A stretch of 64,000 nucleotides of DNA from Candidatus Bathyarchaeota archaeon (GTDB lineage: Archaea > Thermoproteota > Bathyarchaeia > TCS64), in assembly GCA_963771885.1 (NCBI GenBank), contig CAVYVF010000022.1, positions 320,001-384,000 of the forward strand, given 5' to 3'. How positions within the stretch are numbered: the stretch's first letter is position 1; each line of letters opens with the position of its first letter. A model generated the notes under the pieces. It did no database searches. It saw nothing but the letters and a program-made list of their open reading frames with translations, and had not been told where the DNA came from. Positions 44,993-64,000 of this stretch are shown one piece after another. The translations under genes and the position numbers were made by a program.

Positions 44993-45271
44993 ATTCTCTA
45001 CCTCCTAGATAGAGGAACCCTCATAGGCAGTATTATAATTATGGTAAAAGTAACCAAATATTTAGCTTTTACGCTCGAAGAGTTTTATAAATTGAGGAGA
45101 ACAGACTTACGGACATAGTATTTAGACCATTTGTGAAAGAGAATAACCAATAATATCTGAAATTGTTCAAAGTGACCTTGAGTAGTAAAGAAACATTAAT
45201 ATGAACTAAAAATAAGAACAATTTGGACGCAATCTTATTAATCACGATTACCGATGCTACTATGCTACATT

Positions 45272-46214: not shown

Positions 46215-46274
46215 CGGTTAATAATATTATTTATTGGAAAGCGTTATATCTACATCGTATAGTGGGGAGTAATA

Positions 46275-46955
46275 TTGAATACGTTAAGTATTTTATTAGG
46301 CTTTTTATTATTATTTTTCGGTTTTTCTATAATCTTGGTCGGCTGGAAGATTCATCGGCAAATGATTGGTCTGGCGGGGTTCATCACAGGAGCATTGATT
46401 GGTAACTTTATTTACGTGGAGATTCTTCGCCAAGATTTCTTTGTATTCCAGTTAGTACTTGTTCCACTCGTAGGTGTTGCCTTTCTTATTATTTTTCTCG
46501 TTTACGAAAGGTGGGCGCTATCGATTACGGGAGGCGTCGTCGGTGCATTGGTAATATCTGGTTTCACTTCAACTCGTGTCTTAATTGATTGGGATGCTGA
46601 GACCCCGATATTTGCCCCTCACTACAATTATGTCGCTCTTTTCGCTGCATTTCTCGTGTTTTTTTATCTCAGTCATAAATTCTTCAAATTAGGCTATATT
46701 TTCCTCTCAACGTTCATAGGTTCAATATTTATCGCCTATGGTGGGGTAGGGATAGGCTTTTGGAGTTATGATAATCTTGGTCTTTTCCTCCTCCTTTCAA
46801 TATTAACAGGCATCATTATTCAACTTCACAGCGAAGGTGAGGTGAAAGAGCGTCTGCTGAGGATCAATGATTACAAGTACTGTATATCATGTGGAAATCA
46901 ACTTAAACCTGGGACGTTAAAGTGTCCTCGTTGTGGGAAAAATAACAATTATTGA
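46275..46955 (+). CDS. Multi-pass membrane protein (DUF4203-like) with C-terminal zinc ribbon
   Basis: 6-7 TM; C-terminal YCISCG...CPRCG. Confidence 0.75.
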   Translation: MNTLSILLGFLLLFFGFSIILVGWKIHRQMIGLAGFITGALIGNFIYVEILRQDFFVFQLVLVPLVGVAFLIIFLVYERWALSITGGVVGALVISGFTSTRVLIDWDAETPIFAPHYNYVALFAAFLVFFYLSHKFFKLGYIFLSTFIGSIFIAYGGVGIGFWSYDNLGLFLLLSILTGIIIQLHSEGEVKERLLRINDYKYCISCGNQLKPGTLKCPRCGKNNNY

Positions 46956-47016
46956 AAAATTTGGTTTGTTAGTAGTTTTTTTAGATTAAATGGCTTCTAT
47001 CCTAATTAGGACCTAC

Positions 47017-48915
47017 TTAGCCTTGATTTGAAGTCTCTGCCCCATCCCGGGTTTTAGGTTTTTGTGGTATCTCGTTGTACAGCTGTAGGGGTAGAATTAT
47101 CTTCATCGTTGTGCCAATTCCTAACTCGGATACGATCTCAAGATCTCCCCCATGGGCTTTGATAATCTTACGACTTGAGGCGAGTTCTGGATGATCGCTG
47201 CTGGTTTGTGAGGTTTTAGAGCTCAGCGGTATTCCTATACCCGAGTTTTTGATCTCGATGACCAAATGGTCTCCTTCGTTCGTGGTAGAGATTTTTAGTA
47301 AGCCTTTACTGGGTAACATCTCAACAGCATTTGTGAGGATGTTGATGAGCGCATGACCCATCTTTCCTCGGTCAATTCTTATTATCTGTTTTTCGAGGGC
47401 TAGATGGACATCAATATCTGATGGGACGAGGATCGTTGATACGATTATGTCGATTAGGTTGGCGATGTCAACCTCTTCGAGATCAAGTCTCTCGGGTGTC
47501 GCTGTTTCATGGACTTGGCTCATTAATGTCGAAGCATTTTCAACTGCGTCGAGAATCGTGTGCTTCATTTCCTCACATTTTTCTGGTTTAGCATCCATCA
47601 AGTAGATTGCGTTAACAATTGTGTTTAATGTTCCCTTTAGCTCGTTTATGATTGAGTGTTTGAATGCGTCTTCATCTAGAATCTTTTCGGACTCTAGTAT
47701 TGTCATCGTGTTCTCCTTTTCTAGGAGTTCAACATTTGAAGAGTACTTCTTTATGTCTGTCTCTAACTTCTTCCTCTCGGTGATGTCTCTAACGAAGAGT
47801 AGGATCTCAGTCATTTCGTTTTCTATCTTCACTGCACTTGCACGGCCTTCTCCCCAGCCGGTTTTTCCTTCCTTATGGATCCACTGGAACTCTACGGTTG
47901 GGATTGAGCCACCTCTAAGGAGATCGTAGAACACTCTGACGAATTTGGGTATGTCCAGAGCTCTTATCGTTTTAATTGACCATACTTTTTTTCCTACGAT
48001 TTCTTGAGCCGAATATCCGGTGATCCGTGAGAATTCCTCATTTATCCAGGTAATATCTCCATTACGCGTCACCGTCATTATTCCATCGGGTGCTAATTCG
48101 ACGAGTGTACGGAATTTTATCTCTGATTTCTTAATTTTTGTTTCAAACGCCTTTCTTTCGGTGATGTCTCTTAGGAAGCATAAAATCCCCTTTTCTCCGA
48201 GGAAGTCTATAACACTTGCATTGATTACTACGGGTAGTAGTTTTCCGTTACTCTTTTTGATCTCGAGGTCGAAATCTAGCTGATTTTGTGTTCCATCGAG
48301 GAGGCTCTTGACTGCTTGTTCTGCCTCCCTTTTATCGATGCCGAAGAGAAGATCTATGCCGGTTTTCCCAAGTATTTTGCCATCTGAGGAAGCCTCCAGT
48401 AGGTTGAGTAGTGCATCGTTAACAAACGCTACTTTTCCATCAACGAGAATGGCGATGGAATCTTTCGCGTCTTTTACAATGTGGCTGTATACGTTCTCGA
48501 TTCTCTGCTTCTCTACGATGTTTCGTATCCGCTTTGCAATTACCTGGTAGTGTTGAGGTATCACTTCTTTGCGGAAATAGTCGTTTATCCCTACTGCAAA
48601 CGCTTTCTCGGCTACTTCTTCGCTTCCTTGGCCGGTGTAGATGATGATTGGTATAGAGCTCTCTTTTCTTATTTCTTTGGCGAGGTCTATGCCGTTCATG
48701 TTGGGCATCTGGAAGTCGGTTATGATACAGTCGTAGTCGTTTGAGCGTAGCACTTCGGTTACTTTGAGGGAATCATTTATCGAGTTAACTTCGATTTGGT
48801 TGTCAAAGGTTTGTATTAACTCTTTGAGCATGTTTAGTTGCCACTCGTCATCATCTACGTGAAGCACCTTGATCGGCTTGGATGATTGCCGGAATGGCAT
48901 TGCATCTGAGAGCAC
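47017..48915 (-). CDS. REC-PAS-PAS histidine-kinase-like protein with degenerate H and G boxes (pseudokinase)
   Basis: Colinear paralog of 40699..42565; H box reads INELKGTL, G1 reads NSGIG, G2 absent. Confidence 0.85.
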   Translation of the reverse strand: MLSDAMPFRQSSKPIKVLHVDDDEWQLNMLKELIQTFDNQIEVNSINDSLKVTEVLRSNDYDCIITDFQMPNMNGIDLAKEIRKESSIPIIIYTGQGSEEVAEKAFAVGINDYFRKEVIPQHYQVIAKRIRNIVEKQRIENVYSHIVKDAKDSIAILVDGKVAFVNDALLNLLEASSDGKILGKTGIDLLFGIDKREAEQAVKSLLDGTQNQLDFDLEIKKSNGKLLPVVINASVIDFLGEKGILCFLRDITERKAFETKIKKSEIKFRTLVELAPDGIMTVTRNGDITWINEEFSRITGYSAQEIVGKKVWSIKTIRALDIPKFVRVFYDLLRGGSIPTVEFQWIHKEGKTGWGEGRASAVKIENEMTEILLFVRDITERKKLETDIKKYSSNVELLEKENTMTILESEKILDEDAFKHSIINELKGTLNTIVNAIYLMDAKPEKCEEMKHTILDAVENASTLMSQVHETATPERLDLEEVDIANLIDIIVSTILVPSDIDVHLALEKQIIRIDRGKMGHALINILTNAVEMLPSKGLLKISTTNEGDHLVIEIKNSGIGIPLSSKTSQTSSDHPELASSRKIIKAHGGDLEIVSELGIGTTMKIILPLQLYNEIPQKPKTRDGAETSNQG

Positions 48916-49159
48916 AGTAACTGGTAATAAAACGATTAACTATCTCGAATCTATATTACCACTTCATAATGGGAAGTTGATTTTGTGTACTTCAAGAAGA
49001 TTGTAGCGCCGTACTTGACATTTAATATTTTACATGTTTATAATGTTGATCATAAAACGATTCTATCTAAATAGGATACTGATTATAGGTAAGAAATAGA
49101 TGTCCCGATAGATTATATATAATATCGCTCTATTATCGATTAAGAAAGAGGTATATTTG

Positions 49160-49315
49160 ATGACCACCAACTGTGTGAAATGCCAGGAAAAACTGGTGAA
49201 CTTCATAGCCTATCTGCCCAACCAGGGTGAGGTTTGTATAAGTTGTTACAGGGACTATGCAGTTAAAGAAGAAGCGAAAACGCTTGTGAAGAACCCTCGC
49301 ACTAAGAATCACTAA
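49160..49315 (+). CDS. 51-aa CxxC/CxxC zinc-finger microprotein (paralog of 34539..34697)
   Basis: GAGGT RBS; MTTNCVKCQEKLVNFIAYLPNQGEVCISCYRDYAVKEEAKTLVKNPRTKNH. Confidence 0.75.
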   Translation: MTTNCVKCQEKLVNFIAYLPNQGEVCISCYRDYAVKEEAKTLVKNPRTKNH

Positions 49316-49361
49316 TCCAGAAACCTATTAATTTCTATCGTTGATTCTGTAGGGTGCGAGA

Positions 49362-49436
49362 GCCGGGTTGGCTGAGTAGTTAGGCGACTGCCTGCAAAGC
49401 AGTAGCACGGAGGTTCAATTCCTTCGCCCGGCTCCA
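49362..49436 (+). tRNA. tRNA-Cys (GCA), intronless, CCA encoded
   Basis: Acceptor GCCGGGT/GCCCGGC, anticodon arm ACTGC-CTGCAAA-GCAGT, T arm GGAGG-TTCAATT-CCTTC, U73 discriminator then CCA. Confidence 0.95.
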
Positions 49437-49547
49437 ATTAACACTTCCAATTTAAGCCCTGTTTCATTTGGCGTGCGCGGTAGTGGGTTAATGAAATGAA
49501 GAACTTTTATAATCTCACGGTATTAGCCTCGAAGCAGGGCGGGGTAG

Positions 49548-51203
49548 ATGAGTTTGGGTAAGACTAGTTTGTATTTGGTATTTGGTGTGCTCGCACTATC
49601 TATTGTGCTGAATGGTTGCCTTTCAGAGGCTGTTTATGCCATAGATTCGTATACTTATGATTCAAGCATAAAGGAGGAGAATTTTATTCTTCACTCTCTT
49701 GATAATCCAGTTTTTGTCGGTGGGCAGGAAACGAAGTATGTTATGGATACTAACTTCGTCTATGGCTTTAAGACCCTGGAGCAGGCTAGGCTAGGTTCAT
49801 TATTCAAGCCAATAGGTCTACCGAAGAGCTCGCTGAACTTTTTCCTGTCCGCTCCGCTGACCAAGCCTCTGGAGCTTAGCGGGCAGTGGAAGGCGTCGAT
49901 ATGGGTCAACAGCACAGCGTACAAGCCAGTTGGATTCACTGTTGAGTTGATCGAGATATCTTCGTCTGGGAGCGTGATCTACGATACTGGCCAGCAGTCA
50001 CCCATCGTGATTTCGAGTATTGGAGAGCACCTGGACGTTCAGGTGACTAATTACGTGCTTGTTTCACCGATCAACCACGTCTTCCAGGAGGGGTCGGCAA
50101 TAGAGGTGAGAGTCGAAGTGAACGCGGGTTCAAGCAGCGAGACCCGGATATGGTTTGACTCCCCGATGTATCCGAGCAAAGTGATACTGCCCTGTATGGA
50201 TTACGCTCGACCTGTATCGATGAAGACGTATAATTGGGAGGGTGTAAGGACCGACGCATTCGACGTTGACGCTACATCGGATAAGAGGATTGTTGAGATC
50301 TCTGCTAATGTAACCGACCCCTTTGGCGGTTATGATGTGGCTTCAGTCGAGTTGGAAATTTATTATAATGGTACGCAGCGTGTGGCGGGACCCATGATTA
50401 TGACCCTCGTAGACTCCGAGATAGGTCAACGCCTCTACTCGATAAACTGGACCTATCCATCAAATATGTTGAGGGGTAACTACTCGGCAGTCATATCCGT
50501 AGTTGACAATAATGGGGCCTATTTTGAGAAGCAAAACGGGAGCCCCGACCCATTCATAGAAGAGGCGACGCATCCCTTCAGCCTCGGCCCCATTGTATAC
50601 TACAACCCTCTGATAACCATAAGGGACTCAGATGGGGATCCTGTGCCGGAGGCACAAGTATTTGTGAGTTATCCAAACGTCGCCCGAGACGAGTTGCCGC
50701 TTCTCACGGATATGAATGGAACGATTGTACTTACGAAGGTCGTACCCGCTAATTATACGCTTACAGTGATCTGGAAGAATAGCGTGGTAGCACACTCGGG
50801 AGTATACGTCAACTCTGACGGGCCTTTCAACGTATCAGCGAATGTGTACTCACTTACAGTAAATGTTGTTGATAACGTTGACAAACCCGTTACCGAAGCG
50901 TATGTTTTCGCCTACAGGGATAATCTTGGATACGGTTTTGGGACAACCGATGAAGAAGGCGTTGTGGTCTTCAAGGTTCCTAGTGGCATCTATGACCTTG
51001 AGACTCATTTCTCATCGACCTATCTGCTCAGCCATGTCTCATCGAACTCCACTAAGCCAGATCTTTCTATCGGGGAATCGACACAGATTACCTTAAAGTT
51101 AAACGATTATCCTCCGCCGCTATGGACAACTACAGGGTTTTTGGTCGTGCTAGCGGGAGCAGTTCTGCTAGTGATGATCCTGATGATCATCAGACGTAAT
51201 TAA
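49548..51203 (+). CDS. Secreted/surface protein with carboxypeptidase-regulatory-like (Ig-like) domains and C-terminal TM anchor
   Basis: Signal peptide, D..G.PV..A.V..TD..G repeats, C-terminal TM plus RRN. Confidence 0.8.
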   Translation: MSLGKTSLYLVFGVLALSIVLNGCLSEAVYAIDSYTYDSSIKEENFILHSLDNPVFVGGQETKYVMDTNFVYGFKTLEQARLGSLFKPIGLPKSSLNFFLSAPLTKPLELSGQWKASIWVNSTAYKPVGFTVELIEISSSGSVIYDTGQQSPIVISSIGEHLDVQVTNYVLVSPINHVFQEGSAIEVRVEVNAGSSSETRIWFDSPMYPSKVILPCMDYARPVSMKTYNWEGVRTDAFDVDATSDKRIVEISANVTDPFGGYDVASVELEIYYNGTQRVAGPMIMTLVDSEIGQRLYSINWTYPSNMLRGNYSAVISVVDNNGAYFEKQNGSPDPFIEEATHPFSLGPIVYYNPLITIRDSDGDPVPEAQVFVSYPNVARDELPLLTDMNGTIVLTKVVPANYTLTVIWKNSVVAHSGVYVNSDGPFNVSANVYSLTVNVVDNVDKPVTEAYVFAYRDNLGYGFGTTDEEGVVVFKVPSGIYDLETHFSSTYLLSHVSSNSTKPDLSIGESTQITLKLNDYPPPLWTTTGFLVVLAGAVLLVMILMIIRRN

Positions 51204-51251
51204 GATTAGCTATCAATCACAACTTTTTTTGACCATGTCGTGCGCGCGTAT

Positions 51252-51704
51252 TTATGGGTAGAAGTGGACTATCTTCGTCGGCACGACCCTTAACGTGACT
51301 TGGGTCTCTTCATCGAACTCGGGGTTGTAAGATGGCTCCTTATGATACTTGCCAAAGACCCAGCGTAGATACTCGTCATGGCCCTCCTCGGGCTTAAAGC
51401 CTAGCTCAGCCAGCCCGTAGACCAACGCATACTTGGATGGGATGTCACCTTCGTCCCAGGTCTTTGTGCCCTGCATGAGGAATGAGAGTGAAACGTTCTT
51501 GTTCCGTTTGATGTTTTCCACCCTCTTTGATTTTTTTATGGATACGAAGTAGAAGGCGTCGTCTCTGTAGTTGTACCATATCGGTGCAGCGTGGATGGTG
51601 CCATCCTTGTTATGGCTGCAGAGGATGGTTGTGTAAGATTCCTTGAATAGGTTCTGTATATCATCCTGTGTCATTTTGTTACTACTCAATAGATCCACTT
51701 CCAT
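51252..51704 (-). CDS. Pyridoxamine 5'-phosphate oxidase-like flavin/F420-binding protein
   Basis: DGTIHAAPIWY, SKRVENIKRN.NVSL, G.AEL. Confidence 0.82.
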   Translation of the reverse strand: MEVDLLSSNKMTQDDIQNLFKESYTTILCSHNKDGTIHAAPIWYNYRDDAFYFVSIKKSKRVENIKRNKNVSLSFLMQGTKTWDEGDIPSKYALVYGLAELGFKPEEGHDEYLRWVFGKYHKEPSYNPEFDEETQVTLRVVPTKIVHFYP

Positions 51705-51766
51705 AATGCTATTGCATTTCTCGGCTTTTAAGGGTCATGTGCTCGCTTTTTTGACGTGTGCGCGCA

Positions 51767-51867
51767 ATTCTCGTCCAGCTCAGTCACCGAAGTTCTGTAA
51801 GTATTGTGGTGGCGCCCTTTCGGCTAACAGTGTTTATTGTCCCCAATGTGGGAAAAAAGTAGAATGA
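51767..51867 (+). pseudogene. Orphan 3' fragment encoding a double-CxxC zinc ribbon
   Basis: KFCKYCG.......YCPQCGKKVE* with no plausible own start; begins immediately after the tract at 51754-51766. Confidence 0.6.
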
Positions 51868-51965
51868 GTTCACGTGCTCGCGGGATGAATGTGCATACAT
51901 AGCATTCATTTATATCTGCATTCAATGAAATCTTTACAATACTTTCTCCTAACGATGGTGGTCAA

Positions 51966-54152
51966 GTGAATAAAATTTCTCAACTTTTACTGCTCTCCAT
52001 TGGCGTCTTGCTTTTACTGGTCTCATCTATCTCAACAGCAGCCAAGTCTACAAACCTCTGCAATGAATGCCATACTAGTTACAGCCAATATCTCGATATA
52101 CTCGAAGACAATGCAAATGAAATAATTCCTCAGACAATAGGCGTAGGAGAAACTAAAACCGTTACCATTCAGGTCAATAACCAATGTAACTCAAAAAGCT
52201 ATACAACTCTGACAAATGTGCGCTTAAATCTCTCGTCAAAAAACGGTCTATTTCAGATAACCAACCCAACCTACATAGTTGGCACAATGAGTATAGGATC
52301 AAAAACAGCGACTTGGCAAATAACTGGGTTAACCAGTGGCTCGGATGAATTCGTAATAACTGCACAGGGAACAAACGCCCATAATCAGCTGACTTTTCGC
52401 GACATTTATGGCCCAGTGAAAACCCTCACAATAACAACCCCACAGCCAACACCAAAATACGCCGTATTTGTAACGATCAGGGACACCACAACTTCGAATC
52501 CGCTTCAAGGGGTGATCGTAAGCCTCGGTGGGGCACAGAAAACAACAACTAGTAACGGAACGGTCTCATTCAGCGTCGAAACCGGTAACTATTCTCTAGA
52601 AATATCTAAAGATGGCTATACAACATCTCAGGAGACAATTACACTAAGCGCTACAACAACCATTACACGAACACTTGCCCCAACGTCTCTACCAAGCTAC
52701 ACCTTAAAAGTTAATGTAAGTGACTCAAACGCTCTCCCACTTCAATCAGCCAACGTCACAATAGCGGGAATTCAGAGACTCACCGATCAAAGCGGGCAAG
52801 CCTCATTCAACCTTCAATCTGGTATCTACACTGTAATAATCACTAAAAACGGGTATCTCCCCTATAATGAAGCACTCACAGTATCAGCTAACGCGACTCT
52901 CTCAGCAACACTCACCACCATACTCCCTGAAACAGTTTTAATCAAGATCGTAGTAACCGACTCAATAACTCAGACACCTATCAACGAAGTCGAGGTGAGA
53001 CTCGGCGGAAAAATACAACAAACGAACACAATGGGGTTAACCACATATAGTCGACTTAGCGGAGAATATCTGCTTGAGCTCGTAAAAACTGGCTATATTT
53101 CATACGCAGAAAACGTCACCATTACTGCAAACGCAACAATTGAGAGAGGTCTGGATCCCGAGCAAACGCCCGCAGAATCACTTCCACTGATGGTATACAT
53201 CCACCCCCCAATCGCCATCACTGCTTATCTTTTGACATTCACTCTTACTGCCCTGTTATTTTCCAACCTCGAGTCGAAGAGCATGCTATGGGTTGGATAC
53301 GCGGCCTGGATCATGTCAATACTTGGCATGATCACTGGAATGATATGGGCTGAAAATGCATGGGGATCATATTGGTCGTGGGAGCCGAGGGAATCCGCGA
53401 TGCTAGCGATCACGGTGCTGATTTCCCTCACTATGATAACGCTAATAGAGAAAAGAAGGATCTTCGCCAAACCTCTTGCCTTGGCATCCTGCATCGCAAT
53501 CGTTGTCACTCAGCAGATCTATTTCCTTGTAGCTGGAATTCTCGCCGTCTTGATTGTGGTCGTATTAAGATCTGATCTTCTCCTCGGGATGGAGAAGCCA
53601 AAACGATATGCTGCCCTCATGAGGCTCAATCGGGACATCTCTTGGGTTTTCATCGCTGAATCGGCGGCTACTCTAGGTGCAGGTTATGTTATGACCCGAC
53701 TACAAATCGAGCCGTCAACCACCCTGATTGTTCACACATACCTGGGTTACGGCTTCGTTGCTTTGTTGCTCCTCCACATCATTCTAAGCTTTGCGTATCC
53801 CTATCCGTGGTTAGGGTATCTTCGAGCACTTCGGGGAGGTATAACTTCTAACAAGTTGTTCGCTGTCGCTCAAGAACTCTCGGCAGTTGCGCTGATAATA
53901 ATTGCCTTAGCACAGTTTATCACAGGCTTGAGTTGGCTCAATCCTGTCCTAGCAAATCTAGTGCCACTTAGACTTCACGTTGTTCTTGATAATGCCCTCA
54001 TCTATCTACTCATTGTTCACGGATTGATCGGAGTAAGATCTGTTTTGCTAAGAAGAGGTTTGAGAGTGCCTGGAGCCAACTTGACTTGGGTTATCATTGC
54101 CTTAGTCATTCTCGGGGCTTTCCTTTACATTCAATACACTAACCTGTGGTAA
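51966..54152 (+). CDS. Multidomain membrane protein: CxxCH heme-c motif, 3 Ig/PEGA-like repeats, CcsA/CcmF-like WWD domain, His-rich cytochrome b-like domain
   Basis: Signal peptide, CNECH, three ~78-aa repeats, IHPP, TGMIWAENAWGSYWSWEPRE, four TM histidines near the C-terminus. Confidence 0.8.
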   Translation: MNKISQLLLLSIGVLLLLVSSISTAAKSTNLCNECHTSYSQYLDILEDNANEIIPQTIGVGETKTVTIQVNNQCNSKSYTTLTNVRLNLSSKNGLFQITNPTYIVGTMSIGSKTATWQITGLTSGSDEFVITAQGTNAHNQLTFRDIYGPVKTLTITTPQPTPKYAVFVTIRDTTTSNPLQGVIVSLGGAQKTTTSNGTVSFSVETGNYSLEISKDGYTTSQETITLSATTTITRTLAPTSLPSYTLKVNVSDSNALPLQSANVTIAGIQRLTDQSGQASFNLQSGIYTVIITKNGYLPYNEALTVSANATLSATLTTILPETVLIKIVVTDSITQTPINEVEVRLGGKIQQTNTMGLTTYSRLSGEYLLELVKTGYISYAENVTITANATIERGLDPEQTPAESLPLMVYIHPPIAITAYLLTFTLTALLFSNLESKSMLWVGYAAWIMSILGMITGMIWAENAWGSYWSWEPRESAMLAITVLISLTMITLIEKRRIFAKPLALASCIAIVVTQQIYFLVAGILAVLIVVVLRSDLLLGMEKPKRYAALMRLNRDISWVFIAESAATLGAGYVMTRLQIEPSTTLIVHTYLGYGFVALLLLHIILSFAYPYPWLGYLRALRGGITSNKLFAVAQELSAVALIIIALAQFITGLSWLNPVLANLVPLRLHVVLDNALIYLLIVHGLIGVRSVLLRRGLRVPGANLTWVIIALVILGAFLYIQYTNLW

Positions 54153-54189
54153 TATAATTGCGCATATAGAAGTGCGCGCGAATAGATGT

Positions 54190-56527
54190 TTATTTTCGCT
54201 TTAATAGAATAAGCACGGCGACGCCGAGGATAACACCTGCCACGATTTCCTCATACATATATCCGGGTACCCCCCCCAGGCGAGCCTCCTGTTAATTTTG
54301 CTTGCAGGGTGATCGAGGTTGAGGCGACTGATCCAGCGATAACTGTGGCTGAGCTTGAGCTCGATTCGTAGCCATTATACGATGCTTGGAACGTGTAGCT
54401 GCCCGCTGCGATATTGTTGAATGTGAGTGACCCATCAGATCCTGAGACTCCGCTAAGGGCTGATTGCCCGTTTGGTACATTAGTCGATGATATGTTTGCT
54501 CCGGGAATTGATTTCCCCACCTTGTCGAGGACGGTGAGTTTAACCCCGCCGGTTGTCACCGATGGCTGGGAGATCGTAAAAGACATTGAGTCAGAGCCGT
54601 ATGGCTGGGCTTTGAGGTGGAGGGTATAACTACCAACACTTAGCTTGGATGTATCCACCTTCGCCTCATAGTAACCTCCGTTTAACCCAATATTTCCCTC
54701 GTCCACAACGGTTTGGTTGGCCGAGGTGATGTAATATGTGAAGCCAGGAGATGGATCGTTCAGTAGGGTACCGGCGAAGCTTTTTACGATATATTCCACT
54801 GTTAGGGTTTCGCCTCTGGCAACTAATTGCCTAGTTTCTTCTCTTGCGATTAGTCCAGGCCTCGATGGAGTCCTCAGTAAGTAGATTGGGTTCCATACCA
54901 GCGTAACATCTTGTTTTCCCGGGACGAAGATGAAAGGACCGGTGCCTACGAGTTTCGTCAAACCCTTAACAGTCGGGTTGGCTTCCTCCCAAGGCTTGAA
55001 GTTAAGCGGCTCTGAAATGTCACCCCAGATGCGCTCAGACATAAAGGTAAGCCAGTTGAGGGCGTATATGAGCCTGAAACCGGATTCATTTAGATAGATA
55101 ATAATTGTATTATCGTCGGGTGTCTCAACTTTGGCTACCTTGCTGATGATTTCCTTATAATTTGGTAAATCATGAGTTCTGAGATAATCGATGCAGAAAC
55201 TATAATCCCTGGAAGTGAATTGTGCGCCGTCCTGCCAGAAAATGCCTTGTCTCAGATTGAATTTGACTTTCATGCCCTGAGAACCCGTTGGTGTTGTCCA
55301 TGCCTCTGTTGACCAGCTGCTGGCGAGCATAGGCTCATCCTCCCCCGTCGAGGGGTTGACGTATATCATGGGACTGTAGACAAGTTGTAGTATCCCCCAC
55401 TCCCTGAACGAGTCGGCTGTACATGGGTTTAGTGTTGTCAGGTTCCCAATGATGCTCCCTTGGAGAATACCCCCGTAATTCTGGTTGTCTATGCTGAGGT
55501 TGGTGTAGCTCCAGATGTTATCGACGCCCAGCCCCGGAATGTTGACTACCCCGGAGAGTCCTGAACTCCAAGCTGACTGGGTATACGGCGCGAGAACTGG
55601 AACACAGGGGAGTAACTGTGATACCCTCTCCTGCGCTGCTAGGGCAGCCTGTCTGCACTCGTCTTCCGTGGCGCCTGTCCACATCATCTGAAGACTGGTA
55701 TCGAGGATCTGATCGTGGAGCCCTGAGTAGTTGCCTGTACCGTTTGTATCCTGTGAGGAGTGCAGCATTGCGTAGAGGCCGAAGGGTATCCTCGTGAATG
55801 GGACGTACTGGACTAGCACATCGAAGTCCCTGCTGCTCGTTGTCTCCGCGAGGAGCTGACTCTGGGGTAGCGAAAGCTGCGTGCATTTGATGCCTATGGC
55901 GTTGGCATAGTATGCCGTCGCGTATCCAATATCCCAGAGGGTTCTGCTGCCTACTTGGGTTGGCGTCATCAGCACGATCTCGAGTGTTTTACCTGTGTTC
56001 GGGTTTATTCTCCATCCAGTCTTCGTGTCGAGCTTATAGCCCGCATCCTCAAGCATCATTGCGGCGGCTTTCGAATCGAACTCAGGGACTATCGCCTCCT
56101 CGTTGATCCAGCTGGGCGTTGTCGTTGAATAACTGAGTGTGGGGGTGGCTCCTCCCCTCTCAAGGGTGTCGCAGATGTAGTCTCTGTTTATGAGCCTCGA
56201 GAACGCCTCCCTGAAGGCTTGGTCGTTGCAGGGGTTTCGCCGCGTGTTAAAGAATAGGTAGGCGACCGTTGTGCTTGTCGAGTTGACTATTTTGATGTTC
56301 GTTGATTGTAATTGTTCAGCCTGCGAGCCTGTGAGGAGTGGGATATAGTCGATTTCTCCGTTGGCAAATATTCTAGCCTGATCGTTTTCGCTGAAGCGGG
56401 GGAGAATTCGCAGGTTAATCGAATCGAAATTGGGACCTGTAGGAACAGATGCTGTGGCTAATGGAATTGGGGTTGAGAGTATAGCCAAGAAGAGAAGGGT
56501 GAGTAGTTTTTTCCACATTTTAATCAC
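54190..56527 (-). CDS. Orphan family-5 ABC substrate-binding protein with Ig-like domain; C-terminal anchor frameshifted at a G8 run
   Basis: FREAFSRLINR, WQDGAQFTSRD, VGTGPF. Removing one G at 54270-54277 restores VPGYMYEEIVAGVILGVAVLILLKRK*. Confidence 0.85.
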
Positions 56528-57732
56528 TTTGTCTGTTCTGGAATAAACGCCTCCAGATAGGCGTTCGCTGTCGCCTGCGCCCGGTTATATAGATCGTAGG
56601 CAGATCTTTGGTCATTTACTACGCTGCTGACTCTGTCAGTGTATAAAACGGTCCCGGACCCGTCGGTTATCTTAATCGAGCAAATCTCCACACTGTTGGG
56701 GTTAATTGCTTCACCGCTGACATGCACGCTTATGGTCACGATGTAGCTGATCGGCCAGCCACCGTAGGGGTTGTAGCCGGGGAAAGTCTCAGGGGAAATT
56801 TTCCCCTGCTCATACAATTTAAGCTGAGCCTGCTGAGCAGCCAGGAACTCGGGTGAAGCGTCGAATATGCCGACAGTGGGGTTCTGTCCAACTCCGTTAA
56901 TCAACTCGATTCCAGGCATATCTCCATTGGGGTTGCTAGGTGGGGCTGTGCCAAATGTCCATAGAACCGGCATTTCTAGGATGATCACTGGGTTAGTGCT
57001 GGCTGGGGGTGGGGTTTCCTCTGTTGATTGAGGGGTGGATTCGGACGGTAGCGGTGGGTCAGGTACATCGCCGTCGGGGTAGACCGTATTCGGGTTTGAT
57101 TCTGATGAGGTGTCTGATCCGCCGCCGGTTGACGGAGTGGGGACATACCCTGAGGCGAATGTGTACTTTACCGACCCGCTTGGAGGAGAGATGATTGATA
57201 CGGCGGTCACTCGGGACATCTGGGTATCCGGCTCCGCATAGTTCTTGAGGAGCGCGCTGTTGCAGTAGAGTGCGATCGTGTTCCCTATCTTATGCATCGT
57301 CACCGCTACATTTGCGTTTGCGGCTTCATGGTAGCCATCTAAATGGATGGTATCCACGCCGTCTCTGTAGAAAACGTATTGGCTACGAGACCCGTCCGCC
57401 ACCCAGAGGTAAGAGTGTTTCTCTGTGTAGACCTGGATATTTACATAGCTGTGGCCAAATCCTCCAATCCATGAGCCGGTGGCGTCCACCTTCCAGTCAA
57501 ATATCCCGGTGGGTACGCTGTATACGCCGACCGAAGCTCCACCTCGGAGGATTATACCCGGGCCAGTGAAGGTAATACCTTCGGGGTTTGTAAGAGTCCA
57601 TCCGTTTTCTTTCATATCAGTTTGGTTTTTATAACCGAAGTTAGTAGACCATTGAGTTCCCTTTGCTGTCTTGTAGCCTACAGAAATGAAGAATAAGGTT
57701 ATTAGTAAAATTAAAAAAAAGTATTTCTTCAT
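56524..57732 (-). CDS. Secreted hypothetical protein with beta-rich N-terminal domain and Pro/Ser/Thr linker
   Basis: Signal peptide MKKYFFLILLITL; low-complexity P/S/T/E linker; 4-nt overlap with the downstream gene. Confidence 0.72.
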   Translation of the reverse strand: MKKYFFLILLITLFFISVGYKTAKGTQWSTNFGYKNQTDMKENGWTLTNPEGITFTGPGIILRGGASVGVYSVPTGIFDWKVDATGSWIGGFGHSYVNIQVYTEKHSYLWVADGSRSQYVFYRDGVDTIHLDGYHEAANANVAVTMHKIGNTIALYCNSALLKNYAEPDTQMSRVTAVSIISPPSGSVKYTFASGYVPTPSTGGGSDTSSESNPNTVYPDGDVPDPPLPSESTPQSTEETPPPASTNPVIILEMPVLWTFGTAPPSNPNGDMPGIELINGVGQNPTVGIFDASPEFLAAQQAQLKLYEQGKISPETFPGYNPYGGWPISYIVTISVHVSGEAINPNSVEICSIKITDGSGTVLYTDRVSSVVNDQRSAYDLYNRAQATANAYLEAFIPEQTK

Positions 57733-57948
57733 GTTAAGATATTTGACTCAATCTAAATATAGACTTATTGCAATCTTGCGGGGTATTCTCGCTTCTTATG
57801 ATGGGAGTGATACTCATCTCCGACACTCGCATCGATGCCTGTGCGGATTTATTCAGGAAGTTGTAGAATATTGTGCGTTAATTAATTGTTAATTCGTTTA
57901 TTTTTGAGGCTAAGAGTGCATTTGATATCGAGCCTCGAGCAATAATAT

Positions 57949-59133
57949 TTGATGAAAACCGCTGCTGAAAGACGCAGTCTCCGAGATATTTACCGCGATG
58001 GATTATTGAACGACACCATTCCCTTCTGGTTTCCGAGAGCGGTAGACCGCGAGAATGGGGGATTTTTTACATGCTTTGACCGTGATGGGACTCTGCTACA
58101 GGCTGATAAGGCGGTCTGGTTCCAGGGGAGGTTCACCTGGATGCTGGCGACGCTCTATAATACGGTTGAGCCGAGGGATGAGTGGTTAAGCCTTGCAAGG
58201 CACGGAGTCGAGTTCCTCAGGGAACATTGCTTCGACGCCGATGGCCGAATGTTCTTCAGCTTGACCAGGGAGGGGCGTCCGCTTAGGAAGCGACGGTACG
58301 TGTTTTCGGAGATATTTGCCATCTTGGCTCTGGCAGCGTATGGTCGAGCTGCTGGAGATAGTGGGGCTTCTGGAGAGGCTCTTGACCTCTTTAGAAAAGT
58401 TCAGGAATATCTGAAGACCCCTGGCGTGCTCGTCCCAAAGACTAACCCTGAAGTGAGGCCGATGAAGGGGCTGGCTATCCCCATGTGCATGATCGTGGCA
58501 GCGCAGGAGCTGAGGAAAACTCGACCCAGCCAGCTTCTCGACGACGTAATCGATAAAAACATCGTTGAAGTTGAGCGCGACTTCATGAAGCCAGAGTTCA
58601 AATGCGTCTTGGAGAATGTGGGGCCCAACGGCGAGTTCATCGACAACTTCGATGGACGCCTGATCACTCCGGGCCATGCTATTGAAGTCGGCTGGATGAT
58701 ACTTGAGGAGGCGCGGCTCAGGAATAGGGATCCGCATCTTGTTGAGGTCGGAACCAAGATCATAGACTGGTCCATGGACATCGGGTGGGATACCGAGTAT
58801 GGGGGCTTATACTATTACCGAGACGCCAAGGGGCTTCCCTCGACGGAGTATTGGCATGACATGAAGTTCTGGTGGCCTCATAACGAGGCTATCATCGGCT
58901 CGCTCCTCGCATATCAGTTGACGGGGGACCCTAGGTACGAGAAGATGCATCGAATGGTGCATGATTGGGCTTATGGACACTTTCCCGATTCGAAGTTCGG
59001 GGAGTGGTATGGGTATCTGCACAGAGACGGGTCCCTCTCATCTCCTCTTAAGGGAAACATGTGGAAGGGCTTCTTCCACCTGCCCAGAATGCAGTGGTAT
59101 TGCTGGCAGCGTCTGGAAGAAATGGGAGTGTAG
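57949..59133 (+). CDS. AGE-family N-acylglucosamine 2-epimerase
   Basis: IPFW...D...GGFF, KAVWFQGR, PGHAIE.GW, KFWWPHNEA, EWYGYL, FFHLPR. Confidence 0.92.
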   Translation: MMKTAAERRSLRDIYRDGLLNDTIPFWFPRAVDRENGGFFTCFDRDGTLLQADKAVWFQGRFTWMLATLYNTVEPRDEWLSLARHGVEFLREHCFDADGRMFFSLTREGRPLRKRRYVFSEIFAILALAAYGRAAGDSGASGEALDLFRKVQEYLKTPGVLVPKTNPEVRPMKGLAIPMCMIVAAQELRKTRPSQLLDDVIDKNIVEVERDFMKPEFKCVLENVGPNGEFIDNFDGRLITPGHAIEVGWMILEEARLRNRDPHLVEVGTKIIDWSMDIGWDTEYGGLYYYRDAKGLPSTEYWHDMKFWWPHNEAIIGSLLAYQLTGDPRYEKMHRMVHDWAYGHFPDSKFGEWYGYLHRDGSLSSPLKGNMWKGFFHLPRMQWYCWQRLEEMGV

Positions 59134-59183
59134 TTCACGCGTGCGCACTGAGACACTTGTTTTTTAAAAAGACGCCATTTTCG

Positions 59184-59201
59184 ACGCCGTCAAGTCGGCG
59201 T
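59184..59201. terminator. Possible hairpin between convergent genes
   Basis: ACGCCG-TCAAGT-CGGCGT inverted repeat near T/A runs. Confidence 0.35.
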
Positions 59202-59242
59202 TTACTAGCGGATAAAATACCGATGATGAGTGTGCGAGTTTG

Positions 59243-59746
59243 TCACTTCTTCTTGTAGAAGTTTACTTCGCAGATGGGGTCGCCGGCTGCGATCGTCTTG
59301 CCTAACTTGAAATCGGCGCCGACGGTCTTCGCGATGTTGCGGTCGCCGTCCATGGCTATATCGCAGAGGGTGGGTATCTCCTCCTTGGGGATGCCTGCCT
59401 TGAGCCACGCGGCGACGAGTGGACAGTAGTGGAACTGGATCTCGAGGGCGTCCTTGCTCCTCGTCTTGACCTCCATCTCGAAGGTCTTGATGCCTAGGGG
59501 GATGATGAAGGCGTCGGCGAACTCCTCGATCTTTCCCGGCGTCTTCATCTTGGCCTTGAATCCGGCGCCGTGCATGCAACCGGTCTGAGCGACTGCGGTG
59601 CGGGCGATTTTTTCCGCGTTTGCTCCCGCCTTCTTGCCCTCCATATAGGTAAGGCCCATCCAGGTGGCGCGGTGCTCGATGGCGTTTCTGTTTACGTTGA
59701 TAAGCTCATCGTTCGTGATCTTTGGGTTATTGGTTATCTTTGCCAT
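59243..59746 (-). CDS. L-2-amino-thiazoline-4-carboxylic acid hydrolase family protein
   Basis: AIEHRATW, FHYCPLVAAW, LCDIAMDGD, TIAAGDPIC. Confidence 0.8.
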   Translation of the reverse strand: MAKITNNPKITNDELINVNRNAIEHRATWMGLTYMEGKKAGANAEKIARTAVAQTGCMHGAGFKAKMKTPGKIEEFADAFIIPLGIKTFEMEVKTRSKDALEIQFHYCPLVAAWLKAGIPKEEIPTLCDIAMDGDRNIAKTVGADFKLGKTIAAGDPICEVNFYKKK

Positions 59747-59768
59747 GGGATCTCTCAGCATCCGTAAA

Positions 59769-62700
59769 CTACTGCTTAGTACCGATGAGGTTGGTTATAT
59801 TCTGTTCCAACCTTGCGTCGAGCGCGCGCCTTTTTCTTATCCTCAAAAAGATAACACCCACTAAAACAATACCAATGACAACTGAGATAGATGGATTTGA
59901 AGGAACACCCGTAGGAGTACTCTGTGAGCCAGACGTAACCGTCACGTTGACCTTCATAACATTTGATAAGCCGTCACTCTGATAGGCAGTTACGGTGACG
60001 AGATATGTGCCAGGTTTGGCGTATGTGTGTTGATTTGCGAAGAACTTATCCTCCTCAACCCCGTCTCCCCAGTTCCAGTGGATTTTACTGATAATATGCC
60101 CCGGCATTCACTGGGACTGTGAACCCGTTGATTGAAGCAGTTAAACCTGTGATCTGTGGATCGTAGAGAGTTAACTTTGGCACACCTGTGCTTATCTTCA
60201 ACTTATATTCTGCCCAGCCCTGGGTGGGGGTTACGGTGAGCATAGTTTCATCGTTTAGGGTTACTCTCAGGGTGTTGTTACTCATGAATGGTCTCGCCCT
60301 GAAAAGAATGTATTCGGCGTTTACTGGCTCGGGGATGTTTAAAACGGCGATCTTGCCGGGTCCTCCACTCCAAGCATAATTTGCTGCTTCTCCCCATGAG
60401 CCGGGGTTATCATACCAACCTGATGTTAGATACTGTTTGGCATCCGTTGAACCTATGTCGATTTTTGTTAGGGTGGTGTTACTTCCGTCTAGGAATTCGA
60501 CCCAGTCAAAGGCGACCGCCAAGTCCCTTGTGTCCGTTGAGTTCTTCACTAGTTCGCTTGGCTTCCCGACGCGGTCGAAGACGAACTTCACTACGCTGGG
60601 CACGAGTTGAGTGGGTTTGGTGAATGGAATAGATATCTCATGTGTACTCAGGTGATACTCTACGCAGACGTAGTAGTATGAATCGTCGCTTGTAATTGAT
60701 GATGCTAGTGGTTTTCCATCTATATACACCCTGAGAGCAGTTGTGTTGGTTTTAGGGCAGGTTATCCTAGCGTAGCCCTTCTTACCATCCTCTCCTGTTA
60801 CGGTGAACTTTAGAGTATCAGATACTGCGGCGACTTGAAGGACTGTTGAGGATGTTACAATGGTGACAACCTGCTCCTCCCCATTAACAGAGATAGTGGC
60901 AATTGTTGGTTTTGCCGAGAAACTTGAGAGTGGGAACCCATCCGCCAGAGTGACCTGCTTTTTACGATAAATCGAATCGTATGCGGTAATATCGTAAGGA
61001 TCGTCAAATATTCCATCTCCTCCAAGTTGGTCCTGTTTAGCTCCCGAGTAATCATCTATAGCTTCGTAGTTGCTCCAGTAGTTCCCACCAATAGGATACC
61101 CGTTATCCCAGGCAATGCCGGTGTTCGCGTGCTCGTACACAACTATTGGGTCATCGCGTGAAAAGATCTTATTGTTATAGAATTTATCATTCGTGCAGTT
61201 CGTTACTCTGAAGCAGATTTGATAATGTGCTATAGTGTTATTGTAGACCTGAACACCTGATGATTGGAAAAGACATACTGCATACGAATCCTCTTGATCG
61301 TTACTGAGTCCAATAGAATTGCCGTAAATTGAGTTTCCATCTATATTTCCAATAATTTTATCAGGATCTACGATTTTCATTCCTTTTGCCTCGGACCCTC
61401 CAACGTCAATCGCAACCGGATAATTATCAAGTAAAACGTTGTTCGAAATTCGGTTACCATTATTTTCGAAAAGAAGGTCTATTCCTATTCTGCTGTTTTT
61501 AATGACGTTTCCATTTATGTAGTTATTATTATTCTTGTCTAAAAGGAAGATGCCGATTGTTGTGTCCTCAATATGGTTACCTGCTATAGTGTTCGAGTTT
61601 GAGGAGACGCCTAGATTAATCCCGTCCCCGCATTCATATACATTATTTCCAACTATCTGGGTGTTATTTGAGTAAACGAGTAATAAACCCCCTACTATAT
61701 TATTTTTTAAAGAGTTGTGGTGGATGAAGTTATTATTTGATGCCGATAGTACTATGCCTGGAGTGACTACTTGAGTCACGTTATTGCTGCCAATGTTGTT
61801 GTCATCCGACTCTTCCAAATAGATGCCTCTGCTTCCCGATTCATAGTATTGTTGGAGATGGAGTTGGAGTATGAATTTCTTAGATAAATGTTGGTAAATG
61901 TCGTTAAGTGTTAACTTGTTGTCTGTAATTTTGTTGCCGACAGAGTCAAAGATAGCTAACCCGGATCATGAGCCCTTAGCGAGATTTCGTATGCAAGCCA
62001 TTGTAGTTAGATCTCGTTTTCGGTGACAGTGTGATAATTGGCGCTGTTTTGCAGGACTACTCCACTATCAGTATTGTTGAAGATCTTGTTATGAGTAATT
62101 TTGCAGTCTGTTCCCCCATCAATAATTACGCCGTTGAAAAAGTGGTCAATATGTTAGATTCTCAAGGGTTACTTTTTGAGCCTTTATGTAGACTCCTGTG
62201 TCGTTTACGTTTGAGATGGAGTGTTTGCCTCCGTCAAAGATGCAATTAGTTCGGTAAATCTGTACAGGAACTATTAGTATTGGAAGTCAGTGTGTATGTA
62301 TTTCCCTTGACCGTAACTGGTGCGTCGATTGGGGTGATGGTTCCATCCTCTTTAATGATGATGGAATCAGAGCGAGTAAGGTATGCGATTGAGTTGATAT
62401 GTTCAAATGTGTTCCCAGCGATGACGCAGGGGGGACTGTTTGACCCGTTTATCTTTACAATAGTCGCCTTTTTCAGTAGAAAGGTGGCGGTGAAGGTCAT
62501 CGGGGAACCGTAGCGATATAGTGAGTAGGATCTTAGGGATCATCCGTTATCAAATTCTGGGACGTTAGCAGCCTTTGTAGCTGTAAATCCCCAGTTTATG
62601 ACTGCACCATCTTCCATTTTGTAAATTTGACCTATGTAGGGGTAACCTGTCTCCACTACAGGGCTCATGGATACGATGTCTACATCTCCATAGTATACTC

Positions 62701-63011
62701 GCATTTCGACGCTAGGAGAGCGCGGACATGCCCTCCTTCAAGCATGATATTACTAAGGTTACAGTCAAAGTGCTATTGTTTTTGACTTTATTTGTAGAAA
62801 GACTTAAATCCATCACGGTGCGATATCCATCTGCCACAGTGAACTCTACATGCTTCTTATCATTGAAGAAGCCTGTTCCATCCCAAACGTTACCACTAAC
62901 ATTGATTGTATGTTGAGTGCTTACACCCGATAATAATAGAATTAAGATGACTATCAGAGTGGATACACGCGGGACAAATCCCATAGGATGACCCGTAATA
63001 TCCTCAGACAT
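59769..63011 (-). pseudogene. Large surface protein (NosD/right-handed beta-helix, PKD, TM anchor) broken into several frames
   Basis: Fragments 62712..63011 (signal peptide), 62246..62500 (II.EDGTI.P...P), 60085..61818 (N-rich beta-helix, WDNGYP.GGNYWS.Y) and 59769..60107 (WNWGDG..HTY..PG.Y PKD plus TM). Confidence 0.8.
59783..59820 (+). repeat. 38-bp direct repeat, copy A, with internal inverted repeat
   Basis: CGATGAGGTTGGTTATATTCTGTTCCAACCTTGCGTCG; 34/38 identical to 63163..63200. Confidence 0.9.
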
Positions 63012-63162
63012 CGAACATCCCTTATCAATTACTAATACTAAAATGTCTGATACTATAACATTTTCGCGCGCTAAGTTGTTAAGAAATCAATACAACCTAC
63101 CCCAATCACTCATTGATTACGCGTACAGTTCATGTTGCGTAGGCTAAACACAATCGCACGCG

Positions 63163-63200
63163 CGATGAGGTTGGTTATATTTTGTTCCAATCCTACGTCG
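63163..63200 (+). repeat. 38-bp direct repeat, copy B
   Basis: CGATGAGGTTGGTTATATTTTGTTCCAATCCTACGTCG. Confidence 0.9.
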
Positions 63201-63346
63201 GGAAGTACTTTTGAAAGGCTCCAATCGACTCCAAAAATGATTAGGCCTATGAATTCACCTGCCTTTTTCCAGCGTGTACAATCGGATAATTTGTATAAAT
63301 TTAGGGGGTACGCTTATTTCCTCCATACACATCTAGGGATATTGGT

Positions 63347-63511
63347 ATGGATGAAGCCAACCTAGCTGAAGCGATAGAAATTTTACGCATTCGCGAGGAG
63401 AGGGTTCGCAAGGCTAGGCAGTACCTTGAAGCAAAGTATCGCGTTCATAGGATGAACGAACTGTTAAAGGAATTCAGAGCAGTCCAAGAAATACCCCAAC
63501 CAGCAGCTTAG
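63347..63511 (+). CDS. 54-aa helical hypothetical microprotein
   Basis: MDEANLAEAIEILRIREERVRKARQYLEAKYRVHRMNELLKEFRAVQEIPQPAA; upstream TATA-like TTGTATAAAT. Confidence 0.5.
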   Translation: MDEANLAEAIEILRIREERVRKARQYLEAKYRVHRMNELLKEFRAVQEIPQPAA

Positions 63512-63746
63512 AACTCGGATAACTCACACGATCCATTCTGCGAGTGCAAGTAGAGCAAATAAACAATAGAATCTGAGTTACCGCTCCATAAAAAATATCC
63601 CAACACTTGGCGATGATTATTCGGCGAATTCGGCATCAACGCGTTCGCCGCCTGCAACTAGGGCTCCGAAGAGGGGCCCGAATTTTCAATCATTTTAGGA
63701 AATGGTTTGAGCTGACTTGATTGATCACGTTACTAGTTGTTGAGCA

Positions 63747-64000
63747 TCAGCCCAACTTTTCAAGCGCTGACTCCATCTCGGCGGGGAACTCTTCATTGAT
63801 TCGTGTCAGGATCATGTCGACGATAAACTGCTTATACTGAGGGTCACCCATCCCCGGAAAGTATACCCAGTGATGTCCCCCCTTCCCGGTTTCATCCTCC
63901 CCCCGTAGGATACCCAAGCCCCGTAGGTATTCGAGGAAGTTTATGATGCTTGCGCGTGATATGCTGTTTTGGCCAAGTTTTTTATTGACTGTTATGGTCA
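63747..64000 (-). CDS. Winged-helix DNA-binding protein (BlaI/CopY-like); N-terminus outside the window
   Basis: Manual translation ..SISRASIINFLEYLRGLGIL..EDETGKGGHHWVY..EKLG*. Confidence 0.7.
   Translation of the reverse strand, partial: TITVNKKLGQNSISRASIINFLEYLRGLGILRGEDETGKGGHHWVYFPGMGDPQYKQFIVDMILTRINEEFPAEMESALEKLG

Follow-up and report, generated by a model that had tools for sequence, protein, structure and literature searches.

The known filler bases left where DNA ends are joined, as in the Ku/LigD type of nonhomologous end joining (NHEJ) or with family-X polymerases such as TdT, are short and mixed, or are copied from nearby DNA. Integron cassettes are promoterless and lie in one orientation, and their attC sites are structured imperfect inverted repeats of tens of nucleotides. 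Highly iterated palindrome 1 (HIP1) of cyanobacteria is a fixed octamer in both coding and noncoding DNA, with a cognate DNA methyltransferase; repetitive extragenic palindromic (REP) elements and bacterial interspersed mosaic elements (BIMEs) share an imperfect palindrome that is conserved and ~20-40 nt long; and in bacteria and mammalian cells, Z-DNA-prone (CG)n repeats are deletion and rearrangement hotspots. We compare with these systems a set of short tracts, alternating in purine and pyrimidine and rich in CpG, that lie downstream of tRNA-Cys (GCA) in the genome of a Candidatus Bathyarchaeota archaeon (G000), in a window (the whole stretch of DNA analysed, 64,000 nt; G000:C22:320001-384000) where the genes that follow the tRNA are unrelated to one another. 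It is fairly probable that these tracts are seams, i.e., alternating-CG filler of ~8-10 nt that is added when two DNA ends are joined.

The tracts are like end-joining filler in that the joint carries extra bases that are foreign to both partners and absent from the unrearranged allele; they are unlike it in being stereotyped CG, ~8-10 nt long and self-complementary, and in not tracking Ku/LigD across relatives. As in an integron, unrelated and mostly single-gene pieces form an array with short palindromes between them; unlike in an integron, the tracts are 6-13 nt long with no attC-sized structured sites, genes of both orientations occur, each with an upstream spacer to itself, and the tract arises with the insertion. 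An earlier note on this DNA had reported neither integrase nor attC, and none of the 27 open reading frames (ORFs) at 33-64 kb matches an integrase. The G000 assembly (2.46 Mb, 23 contigs) is 92% complete with contamination of 6.7%, such that absence of a gene family there is not proof. The relatives searched were 40 genomes, among them those labelled G001, G002, G005, G007, G010, G012, G013, G016, G021, and G029. No description of such tracts was found in the literature on Bathyarchaeia, archaeal end joining, and template-free synthesis, a coverage that lies outside the subscription journals. New here are an empty site, at the level of contigs, of an insert with both ends at tracts; tests of tract non-conservation and spacer length against the sister species G013; and the mismatch with Ku/LigD.

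Tracts at rearrangement joints

Contigs of four public runs (X1-X4) were aligned to window positions 45000-64000, gaps in the X2-X4 cover of the locus carrying no weight as evidence; X1 is a groundwater run and X3 a freshwater run from a separate study. A stretch of ~3.34 kb (59821-63162, minus strand; 3380 nt with one repeat copy) is absent from contigs of both X1 and X3. In one X1 contig, 59778 is followed after five other letters by 63163, one X3 contig joins 59813 to 63194, and X1 depth is zero across 60216-62751. The occupied site in the window has the order repeat, GCGCGCGC (59822-59829, the left end), ~3.3 kb of insert, CGCACGCGCG (63155-63164, the right end, its final CG overlapping repeat copy 2), repeat; the empty site in X1 and X3 has one copy of the 38-nt repeat and no tract. 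The two direct repeat copies (59783-59820 and 63163-63200; repeat family D3, 89% identity, spacing 3380) differ at four positions, by transitions only. The repeat region aligns by eye with DNA upstream of the ATC-hydrolase orthologues in G013 and G002, and because of this resemblance we infer that the empty state is ancestral and that the repeat is native target sequence. As far as the aligned contigs tell, the tracts at 59822 and 63155 are the exact ends of the insertion and were made together with it. The insert carries a decayed gene for a NosD/beta-helix protein with PKD domains and a membrane anchor (Pfam NosD, Beta_helix, and PKD), which is riddled with frameshifts and stops; its last PKD/anchor ORF runs across the left tract at 59822 into the repeat.

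X1 looks like a related strain rather than the same one, because its pieces diverge by 0.7-6.4% from the window, and it may even be the source sample. The divergence is piecewise (0.7% at 54799-55944; 6.4%, with 10 gaps, at 49143-50068), which suggests possible mosaic exchange between strains. Over the 19 kb covered by strain contigs four joints were reported, three of which touch a tract (two of three distinct places); the fourth, 63512 to 63608, has no tract.

A second event comes from within G000, several contigs of which (C5/C6, C10/C20, C2/C3, C14/C15, C21/C7, and C7/C8/C9) are near-duplicates, 87-98% identical over kilobases; these probably represent two or more strains in one bin and serve as natural allele pairs. 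C10 has a 10-nt GC repeat where C20 holds 2078 extra bases, with no tract at either C20 edge. Because a 115-aa ORF of C20 spans one edge of the 2078-base segment, C10 is the deleted form. In these two events, the ones of resolved direction, the tract thus arises with the joint and was not there beforehand, because the unrearranged allele has no tract at that place. Some twenty larger indels separate near-duplicate contigs, and by our reading about a dozen of them have a joint that carries a tract. Across the genome, self-homology (hits of at least 40 nt, the 64-nt repeat family of contig C1 excluded) has 1014 endpoints, 35 of which fall within 6 nt of a (CG) run of at least 6 nt, vs. 8.6 ± 2.9 in shifted controls, the maximum of which was 22 in 300 trials. 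The excluded family lies at G000:C1:86305-86813, where 708 self-hits of 64 nt pair 86305-86370 with 86750-86813 in opposite orientation, which indicates a low-complexity inverted repeat.

An insert that is bounded by tracts and flanked by a direct repeat could also be read as a mobile element with transposon-like inverted ends and a target duplication. The tracts would then be the termini or crossover sites of gene-sized cassettes, and an enzyme acting in trans would recognise (CG)n and move them; some sites do have a single tract in one allele and tract-insert-tract in another, and pieces between tracts consist of a gene plus promoter, such as that of the PNPOx-like gene (51251-51753), which occurs in unrelated contexts in five loci of four relatives. 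We nevertheless regard this explanation as unlikely. The deletion joint carries a tract and the full-length allele none; among tract pairs at most 12 kb apart, flanking repeats (16-60 nt at ≥85% identity) were found genome-wide in a single case, which is this insertion, although in this tolerant scan two of five shifted controls gave 35 and 37 hits, untraced and probably from a repeat region. Target duplication as a general feature was also rejected in a scan with exact 10-mers (3 hits, vs. 1-9 in shifted controls). Nor is there any consensus within 30 nt on either side of the tracts, where base frequencies are at background; unlike transposons or miniature inverted-repeat transposable elements, they show no set-length target duplication at each copy, and unlike REP/BIME-like elements, they have only the CG core in common. 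G000 has no match to tyrosine recombinase (PF00589, not even of the Xer type) or serine recombinase (PF00239), DDE and other transposases not having been searched for, and its only Cas1 is a 148-aa fragment. Of the "crossover or insertion scars" proposed in the earlier note, the insertion scars stand, in that two tracts are exact insertion ends and the tracts are placed non-randomly, where unrelated DNA meets. A dedicated system for recombining cassettes at the tracts is not supported, since unrearranged alleles are tract-free in the two resolved events and the target duplication is unique.

A further alternative is that the tracts came first, as (CG)n spots that are fragile, Z-DNA-prone, or targeted by a nuclease, where breaks start. 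They are of the same sequence class as Z-DNA-prone hotspots, and some alleles gain or lose DNA right at a tract: in the tract at 51754, one X1 contig and one X2 contig lack two letters at 51758, and an X4 contig omits 50 nt (51762-51811) in a gap that begins within the tract. The single-tract vs. tract-insert-tract alleles are likewise in keeping with breakage at existing tracts, as is the clustering of several tracts within 100 nt of one another (63065/63119/63155; 54159/54172). Unlike at such hotspots, however, the tract was made by the rearrangement in both events of resolved direction, the ancestral allele being tract-free, although three events between C5 and C6 (discussed below) are compatible with breakage; breakage also leaves unexplained where the 31-fold excess of (CG)4 in spacers comes from. 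We therefore consider an origin of the joints in pre-existing tracts rather unlikely.

Distribution of (CG)n runs in G000 and its relatives

The tracts are not peculiar to the DNA after tRNA-Cys, for which the earlier note described them, but are found genome-wide and in relatives. The test for enrichment in intergenic DNA that the note proposed gave a clear result, the density of (CG) runs of at least 8 nt in noncoding DNA being 11 times that in coding DNA: there are 127 in the 321 kb without an ORF of at least 100 aa (0.395 per kb) and 77 in the 2137 kb with one (0.036 per kb). In spacers, which have a guanine-plus-cytosine (GC) content of 46%, 216 (CG)4 words were observed vs. 6.9 expected from a first-order Markov model, a 31-fold excess, while repeats of TA, CA, and GA stand at 2.4, 2.9, and 1.0 times the Markov expectation. 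Run lengths of 6, 7, 8, 9, and 10 nt have counts of 114, 79, 65, 42, and 19, after which there is a single run of 15. A likeness to HIP1, also proposed earlier, extends to a short GC-rich palindrome far above expectation; unlike HIP1, the (CG) runs are in excess only in spacers and not in coding DNA, their length is 6-10 nt, and their positions are not conserved. Runs that start with G are preceded by T in 93 of 192 cases, and runs that end with C are followed by A in 91 of 199, vs. about one third expected; this edge excess fits decay of longer CG runs by transitions that preserve alternation.

These counts make it hardly credible that the tracts stem from base composition, slippage, or assembly artefact, and we reject that explanation on their strength. 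In its favour, GC-only 8-mers are common in GC-rich coding DNA, and the count of GCGCGCGC is unremarkable among words of four G and four C. Against it are the CG-specific Markov excess in spacers; a run length that stops at 10 nt, unlike in slippage; the same excess in the G013 and G021 assemblies; the bridging of tracts by contigs of four independent runs; and a tract length far below assembly k-mer length. Counts of GCGCGCGC in 41 whole genomes were also tried and set aside as uninformative, because the control word is the same repeat read in its other phase and because the genomes differ in GC content (34-58%).

Tracts occur in spacers of every orientation (0.74 per kb in convergent, 0.60 in tandem, and 0.43 in divergent spacers) and at no fixed distance from genes, and few lie close to a start codon (21 of 187 tract-to-start distances are within 50 nt). 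Their density in spacers is ~3 times higher in low-GC 5-kb windows than in the core. The window itself has ~55% GC in its first 34 kb and ~38-54% in the remainder; the low-GC stretch at 34-49 kb, before tRNA-Cys, has almost no tracts, while six of the seven spacers of at least 20 nt within 49.4-63.3 kb hold a run of at least 8 nt with at least three CpG. The tract at 59822 sits in the tail of an ORF and so is outside this count. The genome-wide rate is 246 of 1946 spacers (12.6%), from which P is ~2e-5 by hand calculation, for a region that was picked after the fact.

Relatives share with 49-64 kb of the window only single genes (PNPOx, ATC hydrolase, and tRNA-Cys), and an alignment of the locus across genomes thus gave no breakpoints; spacers cannot be aligned across species because core genes are only 68-81% identical. 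In its place, gene order and spacer length were compared with 718 kb of G013 (443 reciprocal best hits, median protein identity 80%). Of 116 spacers at conserved adjacencies, two have a tract in both species, six in G000 only, one in G013 only, and 107 in neither. When the spacers are sorted by length difference, tracts occur in 5 of 21 that are at least 50 nt longer in G000, in 2 of 69 of similar length, and in 1 of 26 that are longer in G013. At adjacencies broken with respect to G013, 21 of 137 spacers have a tract, vs. 8 of 146 at conserved ones (Fisher 0.0098), in a test made noisy by crude ORF calls (greedy longest ORFs).

The same data bear on the proposal that the tracts are selected DNA signals, i.e., sites for a regulator, a nucleoid protein, or an insulator protein, or a methylation target. 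The tracts are palindromic, confined to spacers, and rare near start codons, as such signals might be. However, only 2 of the 9 tract-bearing spacers at conserved adjacencies have the tract in both species; the tracts lie in all spacer orientations at no set gene distance, vary in length without a flank consensus, and appear along with inserted DNA; and no C5 methyltransferase (PF00145) match was found in G000, other methyltransferase classes not having been searched for. A signal function is quite improbable on these grounds, and annotators should be cautious with such palindromes, which are probably not regulatory sites.

For runs of at least 8 nt, five genomes were sampled. Density is 0.395 per kb noncoding and 0.036 per kb coding in G000, 0.171 and 0.031 in G013, and 0.458 (24 runs in 52 kb) and 0.071 in G021, which belongs to another genus of the same family. 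G001 has no run in 12.5 kb of noncoding and none in 58 kb of coding DNA, and G010 none in 10.9 kb of noncoding DNA and 0.01 per kb in coding DNA; both are placed in the same genus as G000. G013 thus has the lowest density of the three tract-bearing genomes. The sampled stretches of G001 and G010 have 34-35% GC, vs. 55% for G000, a very wide range for one genus.

Proposed joining of DNA ends with CG linkers

If the tracts are seams, joining at an insertion, deletion, or replacement would add ~8-10 nt of alternating C and G to the joint. A polymerase activity, either template-free or self-templating, would extend DNA ends with (CG)n; the tailed ends would pair, followed by fill-in and ligation. 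Since (CG)n is self-complementary, any two tailed ends could pair, and the tail would serve as a universal sticky end. After joining, the tract would decay by transitions with purine-pyrimidine alternation kept, hence the GTGCGCGCA-type runs seen in the window. Surviving tracts would be identical microhomologies in either orientation and could mediate later loss, inversion, or exchange of the piece between them; this reuse would give the locus its module-like look without a site-specific recombinase. Because joints that destroy needed genes are lost, surviving seams would be found in spacers, framing gene-plus-promoter pieces, and the 14 kb after tRNA-Cys would be a stretch where many such joints accumulated.

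A broader version of the seam explanation is possible, but we advance it tentatively: a dedicated mode of DNA joining in one family of Bathyarchaeia, in which a polymerase (self-, protein-, or RNA-templated) caps ends with CG linkers of ~8-10 nt, which are then paired and sealed. Left in place as microhomologies usable in either orientation, such linkers would permit capture, loss, inversion, and exchange of gene-plus-promoter pieces, a natural form of modular cloning that would build a low-GC accessory genome without site-specific recombinases. If the seam explanation holds, each surviving (CG)n tract would record one past joining event, and the gain, loss, and shuffling of accessory genes could be read directly from single genomes of these archaea, which are abundant in sediment and groundwater but uncultured. 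Filler that is stereotyped and self-complementary would also suggest an end-processing or polymerase activity without a described equivalent, with a bearing on archaeal double-strand break repair and uptake of foreign genes, and possible use as a DNA-joining tool.

Candidate enzymes were sought in G000 and its relatives. In common with end-joining systems, G000 encodes PolX and a complete Ku/LigD-type operon (G000:C23:379234-382791) comprising LigD primase-polymerase, Ku, and an ATP-dependent ligase fused to the LigD phosphoesterase domain (LigD_N). In the relatives searched, Ku and LigD polymerase exceed the Pfam cut-off in two genera of the family, and the only such match outside the family is a much weaker LigD_Prim-Pol in G029. 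Ku/LigD was rejected as the cause of the tracts on its co-occurrence with them across few, interrelated genomes, and PolX was rejected as a discriminating enzyme, being present in all five genomes sampled, the tract-free ones included. The operon may be decaying in G013 (C6:593963-595840), where LigD polymerase is matched by two pieces that overlap and Ku has a short reading frame of 198 aa. A precedent for stereotyped, self-complementary repeat DNA made without a nucleic-acid template is given by the bacterial defence reverse transcriptase DRT7, which is reported to synthesise long poly(A)/poly(T) DNA template-free in phage defence (preprint, doi 10.64898/2026.04.18.719102); G000 has no match to RVT_1, nor to Prim-Pol (PF09250).

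Several findings weigh against the seam explanation. The searches in G000 gave no enzyme to which tract synthesis or joining could be assigned, and Ku/LigD_Prim-Pol has no match in the tract-rich G021 but is present in the tract-free G001 and G010 samples. The 38-nt target duplication at the insertion is not accounted for by simple end joining, and it is the sole such case in the genome. Each empty-site joint is known from one short contig of a public assembly. Of the larger indels between near-duplicates, roughly a third lack a tract by our reading, and three events between C5 and C6 show a single tract in one allele vs. tract-insert-tract in the other; this allele form can be explained equally well by recombination at existing tracts and by seams. 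The difference between broken and conserved adjacencies vs. G013 loses significance when spacers of <50 nt (19 of 101 vs. 7 of 73, P 0.13) or <100 nt (15 of 61 vs. 6 of 39, P 0.32) are left out. Lastly, for the remaining five strong tracts there is no tract-free allele, and their origin is argued by analogy.

Tracts and genes downstream of tRNA-Cys

Of the eleven tracts listed in the earlier note, nine are genuine runs of alternating purine and pyrimidine with a (CG)n core, and the positions given there are right: seven are strong, being 8-13 nt long with three or more CpG, and an eighth, CGCGCGC at 63065, inside the insertion, is a pure 7-mer. The remaining three are weak: TGCGCA at 54159 has only 6 nt, ACGCGTAC at 63119 has two CpG, and at 51871 the alternation is interrupted and does not form a continuous run. 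The core word at 51871, GTGCTCGC, was tried as a second spacer motif and is not enriched (8 noncoding vs. 138 coding copies).

The tract-dense stretch starts 35 nt past the 3' end of tRNA-Cys (49362-49436, plus strand; ARAGORN and Rfam RF00005), the only feature found by an Rfam scan of 48-64 kb. About 28 nt of 3' trailer are common to G005, homology with which (window 49361-49464) ends at 49464, seven bases before the tract GCGTGCGCG (49471-49479). A gene for a secreted or surface protein with a CarboxypepD_reg-like domain (49548-51203, plus strand; Pfam, below the curated cut-off) follows, and then the tract CGTGCGCGCGTAT (CGTGCGCGCGTA(T)) at 51239-51251, which abuts the stop codon (TTA on the plus strand, 51252-51254) of the PNPOx-like gene (51252-51704, minus strand; Pfam PF01243). 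This gene and the 49-nt stretch upstream of it form a single-gene piece that is framed exactly by the tracts at 51239 and 51754. Its homologues, 71-80% identical, occupy the five loci in four relatives mentioned above (G007, G012 twice, G013, and G016), all with unrelated flanks, and in three of the five the common upstream stretch ends at a degenerate alternating run.

The tract ACGTGTGCGCGCA (51754-51766), which differs in length between strains, is followed by the orphan 3' remnant of a zinc-ribbon gene (51767-51867, plus strand; Pfam zinc-ribbon families, below cut-offs). A 42-aa zinc-ribbon ORF (51739-51867) extends through the tract, and on G005:C256, where the gene is whole, the same C-terminus closes an ORF of at least 101 aa. 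This is one of two cases in which the earlier claim that segments are cut at a tract holds, the other being the PKD/anchor ORF through 59822. A 12-nt near-repeat (TCAYGTGCTCGC, 11 of 12 identical, seen by eye) at 51735-51746 and 51870-51881 flanks a 123-nt piece that contains this tract and the zinc-ribbon remnant, and may be a small target duplication. The flanks said earlier to be shared in pairs, TTTTTTGAC and AGTTCACG, are not upheld: with blastn-short, 15 inter-tract pieces compared with the genome returned the 38-nt repeat only, so inter-tract pieces were rejected as repeats, and an 8-mer common to about ten flanks is near chance by estimate.

Further along lies a gene (51966-54152, plus strand; Pfam) in which PEGA/CarboxypepD_reg surface domains are fused to a CcsA-like membrane domain, and beyond it the tract GTGCGCGCG (54172-54180) between two convergent stop codons. 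At 51240-51256 and 54172-54188, GTGCGCGCG is followed by an AT-rich stretch ending in ATG, with 82% identity over 17 nt (repeat family D19); this flank likeness of the tracts at 51239 and 54172 is possibly due to chance. Contigs of X1 and X3 bridge the tract at 51239 and an X1 contig (52755-54206) that at 54172; because strain contigs bridge them, the joints at 51239, 51754, and 54172 predate the split of these strains.

On the minus strand, a gene for a solute-binding protein (SBP_bac_5) that has a CarboxypepD_reg tail (54251-56527; Pfam) is overlapped by that for a 402-aa protein without a Pfam family (56524-57732), whose only relatives in a metagenome scan, at 46-57% identity, were of no use for breakpoints. 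The divergent spacer that follows (57733-57948) holds no listed run, in agreement with the earlier observation that the junction at 57.7-57.9 kb lacks a tract. The GlcNAc 2-epimerase family gene (57949-59133, plus strand; Pfam PF07221) is followed, 2 nt past its stop codon, by the tract CACGCGTGCGCAC (59136-59148), and the ATC-hydrolase family gene (59243-59761, minus strand; Pfam PF14196), 87% identical in DNA to G013:C2, precedes the insertion. Upstream of tRNA-Cys, 40699-42565 and 47017-48915 are paralogous receiver-PAS-histidine kinase genes, the former of which is broken into ORFs of 394 and 232 aa that overlap by 17 nt.

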